Source: Eledone cirrhosa
Lineage: Eukaryota
Direction of reading: 5' to 3'
Assembly: GCA_964016885.1 (NCBI GenBank)
Contig: OZ024745.1
Span: 60,822,001 to 60,886,000, forward strand
DNA length: 64,000 nucleotides
Below the pieces are notes generated by a model, which did no database searches, was not told where the DNA came from, and was given only the letters and a program-made list of their open reading frames with translations. Made by a program: the position numbers and the translations under genes. Shown here in pieces: positions 3,022 through 62,616 of this stretch. Every line of letters begins with the position of its first letter. Positions within the stretch are counted from its first letter, which is position 1.

Positions 3022-3883
3022 ACATAGAGTTTCTTTCTTTGGCTCATCAGAAACCATATCAGTGCTGGAGGTGGCCGTTGTAGTATTTGGTATATTTTAG
3101 CTTTAGTTGGATCAATTGTGAAGACGTTGACAGAGGTAAAAGTAATGGTTGAGGGTAATGACGTTAGTGGTGATGGTGGTACTGGTGGTAGTATCAGTGA
3201 GATGATGTTGCCGTATTTTGGTGGTGGTTATTACTTGCCGAACAACGATAGATCACAAGGTGACAAAACCCTGGTCTCAAAGTTGCGAGATTTTTACAAG
3301 CGGCTTCCCTCAGTTCTTGTTGGATTTACCTAGTAGAAAATTGTTGTCCGTGAGGTCGAGCGAACAGGGAACTAATTTTGTCCATATAACACTTATAAAG
3401 ATGAAACAAAACAGACGATTAAACCATTACGAATTCATAATATTCGGGTGTAGTGGGTGGGGGGCGGGGGGGGGGGGTCAGTTGGAGTCACATTTCTGAG
3501 CCTGAGTAGATATTAGAAGTTAAGAATGAATGTGGTGTTTTGAGCAGATATTAGGTGTATACATACACACACATAAATATACTACTTTTTATTCTGTGTG
3601 TGTGTCTACTTTCTTTCGCCCCCTCTGTCATGTCAGTTAACTCTTCCTCACACTTCCACTCACTCACTCACTGTTTCTCCTCTCCTCACTTCACCCCGTT
3701 CGCAACGAAAGCAATTTCTCTCTTTCTCACATTGCATTCGTTCGCGAAAGGTCTTTTTTCTAAGCGCTCATATATTCACCTAGCTTATGCTAACAGAATA
3801 ACTATGAAGCTTGTTTCCTTCCTTCTACGGTTAGCTCTACTCTTTGTTGTTTTCCTGTCTCACTCGCTTTACGCGTTTTAATT

Positions 3884-3984
3884 GTCCTAATAACTTAATT
3901 TAGTTATTATTGCACCGACGTGAGGTATATGATTTTTAATGCAATGAAATATCTATGATCGTCGGCAAATCACTGATGAGGGAC
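3884..3984 (+). ncRNA. Rewired (non type I/II/III) hammerhead-like ribozyme, predicted cut after 3929
   Basis: GTCCT [AATAACT/AGTTATT hairpin] ATTGCA CCGACG TG AGGTAT A^ TGATTT TTAA TGCAAT GAA ATATCT ATGAT CGTCGG C AAATCA CTGATGA GGGAC. All core nucleotides and stems I-III are present in non-canonical order. Confidence 0.7.
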
Positions 3985-4398
3985 TTATTTTATTACATGT
4001 TATCCATGTGCTACCAGCAGTATTTTTCTCCCCATTTTATCACATATATTTACCTAAACTGCAATTCTGTTTTTTTCTCTCTCTCTCTCTCTTACTGCTC
4101 CCTCATTCTCTCTGTTTCTCCTACTTTCTTTCGCCCCCTCTGTCATGTCAGTTAACTCTTCCTCACACTTCCACTCACTCACTCACTGTTTCTCCTCTCC
4201 TCACTTCACCCCGTTCCCAACGAAAGCAATTTCTCTCTTTCTCACATTGCATTCGTTCGCGAAAGGTCTTTTTTCTAAGCGCTCATATATTCACCTAGCT
4301 TATGCTAACAGAATAACTATGAAGCTTGTTTCCTTCCTTCTACGGTTAGCTCTACTCTTTGTTGTTTTCCTGTCTCACTCGCTTTACGCGTTTTAATT

Positions 4399-4499
4399 GT
4401 CCTAATAACTTAATTTAGTTATTATTGCACCGACGTAAGGTATATGATTTTTAATGCAATGAAATATCTATGATCGTCGGCAAATCACTGATGAGGGAC
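4399..4499 (+). ncRNA. Rewired hammerhead-like ribozyme, second tandem copy, predicted cut after 4444
   Basis: Same as 3884-3984 except one change in an unpaired linker (TG to TA). Confidence 0.7.
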
Positions 4500-4549
4500 T
4501 TATTTTATTACATGTTATCCATGTGCTACCAGCAGTATTCCCCATTTTA

Positions 4550-11121: not shown

Positions 11122-11210
11122 AGTGTATATATATATATATATATATAATCTTCGGTTTGCTTTTATCCTTCTATGTTGTTTACTTGTCCCCCTCGCCTTA
11201 CGCGAATTCT

Positions 11211-11314
11211 GGTCCCAATAACTTGTTTTAGTTATTGCTCGCACCAACCTGAGGTATCTGATTTTTAATGCGATGAAATACCAATGATGGTTGGAAAATC
11301 ACTGACGAAGGACT
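11211..11314 (+). ncRNA. Rewired hammerhead-like ribozyme, diverged copy, predicted cut after 11258 (AUC)
   Basis: GGTCCC [AATAACT/AGTTATT] GC TCGCA CCAACC TG AGGTAT C^ TGATTT TTAA TGCGA T GAA ATACC AATGAT GGTTGG A AAATCA CTGACGA AGGACT. Compensatory changes relative to the 3884 copy. Confidence 0.7.
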
Positions 11315-11368
11315 ATTTTTATCATATGTAACCCATGTGCAAACCACGCAGTATTCTTCTTTCTTCTC

Positions 11369-11409
<41 letters not shown>

Positions 11410-33353: not shown

Positions 33354-34319
33354 GATAGCTAGCATGTCGCCAGTGTTACCGTCTGCTCTGTATCATCCAA
33401 TGATAGCTAGCATGTCGCCAGTTTTACCGTCTGCTCTGTATCATCCAATGATAGCTAGCATGTCGCCAGTTTTACCGTCTGCTCTGTATCATCCAATGAT
33501 AGCTAGCATGTCGCCAGTGTTACCGTCTGCTCTGTATCATCCAATGATAGCTAGCATGTCGCCAGTTTTACCGTCTGCTCTGTATCATCCAAAGATAGCT
33601 AGCATGTCGCCAGTGTTACCGTCTGCTCTGTATCATCCAATGATAGCTAGCATGTCGCCAGTTTTACCGTCTGCTCTGTATCATCCAAAGATAGCTAGCA
33701 TGTCGCCAGTTTTACCGTCTGCTCTGTATCATCCAATGATAGCTAGCATGTCGCCAGTTTTACCGTCTGCTCTGTATCATCCAATGATAGCTAGCATGTC
33801 GCCAGTTTTACCGTCTGCTCTGTATCATCCAAAGATAGCTAGCATGTCGCCAGTTTTATCGTCTGCTCTGTATCATCCAATGATAGCTAGCATGTCGCCA
33901 GTTTTACCGTCTGCTCTGTATCATCCAATGATAGCTAGCATGTCGCCAGTGTTACCGTCTGCTCTGTATCATCCAATGATAGCTAGCATGTCGCCAGTTT
34001 TACCGTCTGCTCTGTATCATCCAAAGATAGCTAGCATGTCGCCAGTGTTACCGTCTGCTCTGTATCATCCAATGATAGCTAGCATGTCGCCAGTTTTACC
34101 GTCTGCTCTGTATCATCCAATGATAGCTAGCATGTCGCCAGTTTTACCGTCTGCTCTGTATCATCCAAAGATAGCTAGCATGTCGCCAGTTTTACCGTCT
34201 GCTCTGTATCATCCAATGATAGCTAGCATGTCGCCAGTTTTACCGTCTGCTCTGTATCATCCAATGATAGCTAGCATGTCGCCAGTTTTACCGTCTGCTC
34301 TGTATCATCCAATGATAGC
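33354..34319. repeat. 48-bp minisatellite, 20 units
   Basis: Unit GATAGCTAGCATGTCGCCAGTKTTACCGTCTGCTCTGTATCATCCAAW; (34314-33354)/48 = 20. Confidence 0.97.
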
Positions 34320-59412: not shown

Positions 59413-60431
<1,019 letters not shown>

Positions 60432-60471
60432 TTGTTTCGACACACGATTTCATATCAAAAACCTCGCAAAA

Positions 60472-60575
<104 letters not shown>

Positions 60576-60908: not shown

Positions 60909-61717
<809 letters not shown>

Positions 61718-61882
61718 ATATAACTACTCTGTAAAACAACCGATGTTATTACATTGAGCTATTTATCTTACTGGTAATAAGATAGTAATTAATGACTATC
61801 TTTCACTATTTAGGGTTTGTATACAAAAATATATAACCATAAAAGGTTTTATTACATACATAACCATAAATAGTATCCTTAA

Positions 61883-61951
<69 letters not shown>

Positions 61952-61955
<4 letters not shown>

Positions 61956-62560
61956 TTTTAATGCAATGAAATATCAATGATGGTTGGCAAATCACTGACG
62001 AAGGACTATTTTTATCATATGTAACCCATGTGCAACCACGCAGTATACTTCTTTCTTCTCATGTTTTTTATATGTATTTACCTCGGCTGCGTTTGTCTGT
62101 TTCTCTCTTACTGCTTCCCCGTTTTCTCTGTTGCTCTCACCTTCTTTCGCCCCCTCTGTCAGTTACACTTTCTCTCGACTGACCACTTCCTCGCACTTCC
62201 ACTCACTCACTCTCTGTTTCTCCCCTTCTCACTTCCTCCCGTTTGGCTTGTAGTGGGTTCTCTTCTTGCTCACATCTCACTCACGTCGGACGGTCTGTAT
62301 CACGATCGCTCATGGAATCCACCCAGCTTATGCTGACCGGATAACCATGTTGCTTGTTTATTCCTATCTTTGCGTTGCTTTCATCCTTCTATGTTGTTTA
62401 CTTGTCTCACTCGCTTTATTTAGCTATTGCTCGCACCAACCTGAGGTATATGATTTTTTAATGCGATGAGTTATCAATGATGGTTGGCAAATCACTGACG
62501 AAGCACTATTTTTATCATATGTAACCCATGTGCAGCCACGCAGTATTCTTCTTTCTTCTC

Positions 62561-62569
<9 letters not shown>
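61952..62569 (+). mobile_element. Retrozyme-like repeat of the rewired-hammerhead family: 499-bp monomer plus terminal redundancy
   Basis: 61952-62069 repeats from 62451. Homologous to 3606-4550 and 11150-11377. (TA)n on both sides. Confidence 0.8.

Positions 62570-62616
<47 letters not shown>

Follow-up and report, generated by a model that had tools for sequence, protein, structure and literature searches.

Genomic 5' ends of a non-coding Eledone cirrhosa repeat lend indirect support to hammerhead ribozyme cleavage as a minor route

For Penelope-like elements, one in vitro study found cleavage by the hammerhead ribozyme dispensable. An insertion in a 64,000-nt stretch of the Eledone cirrhosa genome (the window) raises the question of whether genomic copies can record a ribozyme cut. 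The preliminary description of this insertion proposed that its template RNA had a ribozyme-made 5' end, which would be in vivo evidence of cleavage. Signed positions take as +1 the base immediately following the predicted cut.

The insertion occupies 61952-62567 (616 nt), is flanked by two TA arrays and consists of one 499-nt unit followed by 117 nt up to the end of a T run at 62567. It had been described as starting directly after (TA)n at the first nucleotide 3' of a predicted AUA cut, with a boundary uncertain by a few nucleotides. Both points hold, as element sequence runs from T61952 and TATAT (-4 to +1) is common to array and element; the array call itself spans 61886-61952. The unit length of 499 nt and the extension of ~118 nt past the next site (117 nt to 62567) were likewise described correctly. 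The next site, given as 62450, is displaced by one base, since 62450 is the A before the cut and 62451 the first base after it. The features are as follows.

3608-4540, plus strand: family B copy with two motifs, reading through both sites
11148-11388, plus strand: second family A copy in the window, with an intact motif and an AUC triplet, reading through the site
61886-61951, no strand: upstream (TA)n target array, ending in bases that could equally be the element's -4 to -1 (TATA)
61952-62567, plus strand: whole insertion, a family A non-coding unit (499 nt; ~526 nt in relatives) and 117 nt of a second unit
61952-61957, plus strand: stem I 5' strand, including +1, the first nucleotide after the predicted cut
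61962-61975, plus strand: block G, with the X3' strand, U11.1, GAAA and the stem III 3' strand
61976-61987, plus strand: predicted kink-turn strand, then the P3' strand
61989-62006, plus strand: block C, with the stem I 3' strand, CUGACGA (61995-62001), A10.1 and the Y3' strand
62414-62450, plus strand: 5' half of the second motif, with Z3', X5', P5', the stem III 5' strand and the AUA triplet ending at 62450
62451-62506, plus strand: damaged 3' half of the second motif, with GAGT (62468-62471), CUGACGA (62495-62501) and a changed Y3' strand
62507-62567, plus strand: 3' tail to the family's main 3' end (T run, then TA), with the putative internal priming site
62567-62613, no strand: downstream (TA)n target array

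The second motif is damaged in the way first reported, with GAAA changed to GAGT and with Y5' and half of hairpin Z deleted. Relative to copy L005 the deletion measures 27 nt. It falls between 62414 and 62415 and takes away helix Y's 5' strand together with the 5' arm of hairpin Z; the Y3' strand carries a G-to-C change. The deletion junction and the GAGT core are absent from all others of 500 loci, many of which overlap, and therefore look private to this copy. With 6 private changes in 116 compared positions, the copy is therefore not young. Its GC content is 0.44 (0.43-0.44 for the family) and its longest Met-started ORF encodes 102 aa. A dead 3' ribozyme in the donor was considered as the cause of the copy's shape and rejected, as the damage is private and other second-lap copies starting at +1 mostly have intact downstream motifs.

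The window holds further repeats. An element with inverted ends lies between TA arrays at 59536-60475 and contains a canonical minimal hammerhead core at 60185; its hammerhead motif also occurs beside GIY-YIG ORFs at loci L323 and L327. A fold-back element at about 61006-61720 has inverted arms of roughly 190 nt, judged by eye, and a 48-nt tandem repeat (20 copies, 97% matches) occupies 33354-34319.

Judged from its genomic copies, the element is a non-coding, TA-targeting, Penelope-like repeat of retrozyme type with thousands of copies. Exact motif patterns match 1529 times for family A, 3242 times for family B and 527 times for family C in a host genome of 3.0 Gb, and a looser pattern reveals further families. 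The copies display the features of Penelope-like insertions, namely a microsatellite target, fixed 3' ends with an optional tail, 5' truncation, partial tandems and inverted 5' pieces, the last seen in L031, L055 and L062. They also display those of retrozymes: non-coding tandem units, one hammerhead per unit and GC below 50%. Ends were read by eye in 90 family A insertions, drawn from the first 100 of the 1529 matches and all on one chromosome. The 3' ends are fixed, with 85 near +118, three at +72 and two at +106/+108. The 5' ends are spread; those lying anywhere in the unit mostly adjoin (TA)n, and AT or TA starts are favoured.

Copies of different families lie side by side in the same TA tract at L468, L470, L478 and L471. 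A fold-back copy at L356:1200-1650 represents a more distantly related family whose stem I/X region differs. On G000:C1, at about 81.547-81.637 Mb, family B units of ~515 nt form an array over some 90 kb in which many units are changed at the stem I base adjoining CUGA. Two repeats within one insertion differ at 49 of 517 diagnostic cells, where 223 would be expected if they were independent and the background is 2.7%. As the repeats mostly share lineage markers, the figure fits a circular template and a uniform tandem donor equally.

A search for an autonomous partner covered 50 GIY-YIG loci, none of which carries the fold as its own end; in all readable loci the nuclease is C-terminal. Three apparent partner-linked matches were discarded, L387 and L399 being non-coding copies and L310 a weak chance match. 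A metadata row in which Naiad_Ovul is annotated with (TA)n targets and an HHR_half_core offers a lead on the partner. The core pattern has no match in viral or metagenome contigs, and contigs of four possible RNA runs match only simple-repeat parts. Naiads have been reported to lack a canonical hammerhead motif.

The predicted ribozyme has the block order cleavage site (S), GAAA (G), CUGAYGA (C) from 5' to 3', a non-circular S-G-C arrangement. It was aligned in 26 sequences, chosen out of 37 cluster representatives plus neighbouring copies, with truncated and chimeric ones excluded. In a structure of seven helices 91% of cells are paired and 20 of 34 pairs show two-sided change, a level reached in none of 500 shuffles and compared with 28-47% paired in slid controls, all uncorrected for relatedness. 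Stem I is 91% paired with two-sided change at 4/6 pairs, and stem III is 100% paired with two-sided change at 1/5. Stem II is unusual in that only one pair is formed directly between blocks G and C (paired in 19/26 sequences, as A-U, U-A, U-G or C-G). The strands flanking it pair instead with a strand lying upstream, which folds into a hairpin (Z) as well. The core CUGAnGA, GAAA and UH (H being A or C) is present in 26/26 aligned sequences, bases that the search patterns required. Tandem G-A positions between stem III and helix P are conserved in 26, 26, 25 and 19 of 26 sequences, which we take to fit the kink-turn pattern. No Rfam family reaches its gathering score within the window. Single-sequence folding gave z-scores of -1.7 to +1.1, which are not taken as evidence because pseudoknots are beyond this method. 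Covariation thus supports a putative S-G-C hammerhead with a split stem II.

This fold resembles the type-SGC hammerheads described by Eckert et al. (2023, PMC10085705), HRIMA-1 and its variant, in its S-G-C order, its stems I and III and an additional helix that joins the outer sides; the CUGAnGA and GAAA cores also agree, though the search patterns presupposed them. It differs from them as described there in that stem II keeps one pair, its remainder coming from a third strand further upstream (Y, hairpin Z, X) in a predicted four-way junction, and in the kink-turn-like motif that joins stem III to P. The main text of that paper names no animal or retroelement host, whereas the element here is a high-copy animal genomic repeat. 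Given the difference in stem II, the fold is not filed under HRIMA-1 or the SGC variant. The non-LTR retrozymes of animals (Cervera and de la Pena 2020, PMC7229834; Li et al. 2026, bioRxiv 10.64898/2026.07.22.740005) are described as sharing non-coding tandem units with one hammerhead each, GC below 50%, dispersed partial tandems, long arrays and a proposed Penelope-like mobiliser. Their hammerheads are type I, unlike the S-G-C order found here. Circular RNA has been demonstrated for them.

The insertions themselves resemble those reported for Penelope-like elements (Craig et al. 2021, PMC8557442; Frangieh et al. 2024, PMC11167929) in their (TA)n targets, 5' truncation, partial tandems, inverted 5' pieces, two 3' ends ~45 nt apart and a mostly uncut template; the absence of an RT or GIY-YIG ORF sets the element apart. 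For the anole element in vitro, uncut RNA is described as the main template, with internal priming (PMC11167929). In that study no reads were found to end at the hammerhead site; in E. cirrhosa, by contrast, a small class of genomic copies starts there. A precedent for reading ribozyme cuts from genomic 5' junctions is R2 with its HDV-like ribozyme (Eickbush et al. 2013, PMC3774820), where variable joins by chance microhomology are described when the cut lies at the element's edge. In R2 as described there the cut defines full-length elements, while here it concerns a few percent of copies, and the ribozyme and RT class differ. In the open-access full text searched, neither this fold within an animal retroelement nor such a 5'-end step is reported.

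Had the cut generally set the 5' ends, tabulating them across copies should give a peak at +1, as the preliminary description anticipated. No dominant peak is seen there in unselected copies, although a small +1 class exists. On the first lap of family A, 77 copies reach +6, of which 3 end in -5 to +6 and 74 cross the bond. The second-lap sample comprised 92 of the first 100 listed places (2 of the rest lie in arrays already counted), of which 89 were kept after 3 rows with identical flank and start were dropped. Here 43/46 copies reaching the site cross it and 3/46 end in -5 to +3 (P 0.10 against a background of 0.3% per nt). In family B none of 44 insertions starts at +1, five of them placed roughly by alignment to truncated references. 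As most copies cross the site, the main template is continuous across the bond, in line with the in vitro result for the anole element (PMC11167929).

The strongest second-lap stops lie elsewhere, at +40 to +45 (13/73), the stem I/CUGA boundary at the 3' edge of stem I, and at -20 to -36 (14/40), in hairpin Z. Both are mostly second-lap features, accounting for 10/15 loci at +38 to +45 and, at -20 to -36, for 14/40 vs 3/74 (L151-L240). The +40 to +45 stop may reflect RT stalling or a transcription start at A43; a single master copy is ruled out, as the loci include two haplotypes and four non-TA flanks. The read-through copies L433 and L448 have three to four additional bases at the scissile bond. 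Such bases are rare (1/339 anchored sites, L433, with L448 found by eye) and give no signal of template jumping.

The junctions near the cut were then compared directly, in classes read by eye on the first chromosomes, with tests chosen after seeing the data. The counts treat copies as independent, which donors passing on their 5' ends would break. For family A, 41 loci were read among the first 100 of 270 matches listed. Eleven are in phase at +1, 4 are ambiguous within -4 to +1, 2 are out of phase exactly at +1, 1 is at -2, 8 are at -5 to -9 and 15 at +3 to +6. The step is weak among these listed matches (33 vs 8, P 0.04; matched TG starts 11 vs 3, P 0.03).

In family C, a sister family, the step is sharper. 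Its triplet is AUC in 31/36 read-through sites, so the TATA overlap is removed there. Among the first 100 of 111 matches listed, 28 distinct junctions fall in -11 to +4 (two pairs merged), 23 of them at +1 to +4 and 5 at -11 to -1 (P 1e-9); for directly abutting arrays only, the listed matches give 17 vs 5 (P 1e-6). The 23 comprise 11 exactly at +1 with TG, 5 ambiguous over +1 to +3, and 7 at +3/+4, with L484 and L496 at +3. At the matched TG start at -9 there are none in the matches listed, against the 11 at +1, and 7 of these 11 carry the AUC-lineage signature. In all 18 family C junction loci viewed, the upstream sequence is flank and not element. Among junctions out of TA phase in the A and C lists, 5/11 lie exactly at +1 (3 in family C; P 0.001). 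In sum, ~95% of copies reaching the bond read through it, and starts at +1 to +4 are over-represented in a way that does not require the TATA overlap.

The best explanation is that the window copy belongs to a small class made from ribozyme-cut RNA while most templates were uncut or re-ligated, a reading to which we give a probability of roughly 0.6. Random 5' truncation with microhomology is the most direct alternative: cDNA synthesis would have gone a few bases beyond the site, and the TATA of the cDNA would have annealed to the array with no cut involved. The 5 nt that the window copy shares with its array suit this, as do the general preference of 5' ends for (TA)n and for AT or TA starts and the lack of a significant +1 excess in unselected samples. 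If this were the cause, the +1 class should be confined to AUA lineages, and AUC copies should join at -4. In family A a downstream AAA marker is linked to AUC in 31/35 cases. Of 44 in-phase copies, 30 were examined as loci and 17 proved true family A junctions, L467 being left out as a read-through copy. The marker is present in 7/17 of these, against 35/90 in the population and 4/50 among AUA copies (P 0.004), and AUC stands at the copy's own downstream site in 3/7 second-lap +1 copies. A second marker gave no significant difference in family A (16/25 vs 24/50, P 0.14). As the AUC marker occurs at the population rate, the +1 class is independent of the TATA overlap. No in-phase TATC junction occurs among the 41 family A loci listed, and the listed family C matches have 11 junctions at +1 vs 4 at -4. 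Microhomology as an account of the whole +1 class is thus contradicted, and the suggestion that TATA microhomology might explain the 5' ends entirely fails on the AUC lineages and on the sharp step in mostly-AUC family C; as the general explanation it is rather improbable.

All peaks, including that at +1 to +4, might instead be polymerase stalls on a folded, uncut ribozyme, or transcription starts, with in vivo cleavage unneeded. This fits the position of the two strongest stops at stem I and hairpin Z, and the account of PMC11167929 in which no RNA reads end at the PAc hammerhead site and cleavage is unneeded in vitro. The predicted fold, however, would leave no helix at +1 to +6 once the RT is past +11 and has displaced the 3' strands. 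Family C density falls ~12-fold directly upstream of the bond, and a transcription start on the scissile bond would be a coincidence, which makes this account unlikely. A post-insertion origin, in which slippage or deletion in the array and TATA erased the upstream part or a few +1 donors passed on their end, can point to L467, a read-through copy with its own TATA expanded, and to the age of the window copy. Slippage is impossible on AUC lineages, and the +1 copies come from several haplotypes and families, and their flanks differ; this origin is quite improbable.

For the window copy alone the balance is closer. Its downstream site reads AUA, as do 12/12 read-through sites of its haplotype, and with 5 nt common to the array, cDNA ends anywhere from -4 to +1 give the same sequence. 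The ribozyme-made 5' end first proposed can therefore not be read from this copy alone, although at the population level it stands as a minor route. By judgement rather than computation, derivation of the window copy from cut RNA seems slightly better than an even bet, held there because AUA lineages are not over-represented at +1 and the class is only a few times its neighbours. Microhomology remains a serious contender for this one copy, if a somewhat less probable one.

Under the preferred reading of a small cut-template class, a Penelope-like reverse transcriptase/endonuclease would act in trans and nick (TA)n. Priming would occur inside the RNA at the U-run/UAUA site, with copying toward the 5' end. 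The templates would be mostly uncut or re-ligated, as tandems or circles, and copying would therefore stop either at no fixed place or where the upstream ribozyme is folded into helices. The scissile bond would be the end of the RNA in roughly 3-6% of passes, and cDNA from such cut templates would be joined to the array at the bond or a few bases short of it. A broader scheme is offered tentatively and is less likely than not: a four-way-junction S-G-C hammerhead would cut in the animal germ line, monomers would mostly be re-ligated into circles, a Naiad-type RT would copy more than one lap, and the 5' ends of thousands of genomic copies would record both the cut site and the helices, much as structure probing does.

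The single copy in the window adds little by itself. Across the family group, cleavage in vivo as a minor route is supported indirectly, and it is likely that a few percent of templates were ribozyme-cut while most were uncut or re-ligated. On this estimate only a few percent of integrated templates would have been cut and left open. The comparison of AUC lineages provides a reusable test for claims of ribozyme cuts in TA-targeting elements. The 5'-end step at the predicted bond, present where microhomology offers no explanation, is indirect evidence for activity of this unusual fold in cells at the predicted site.
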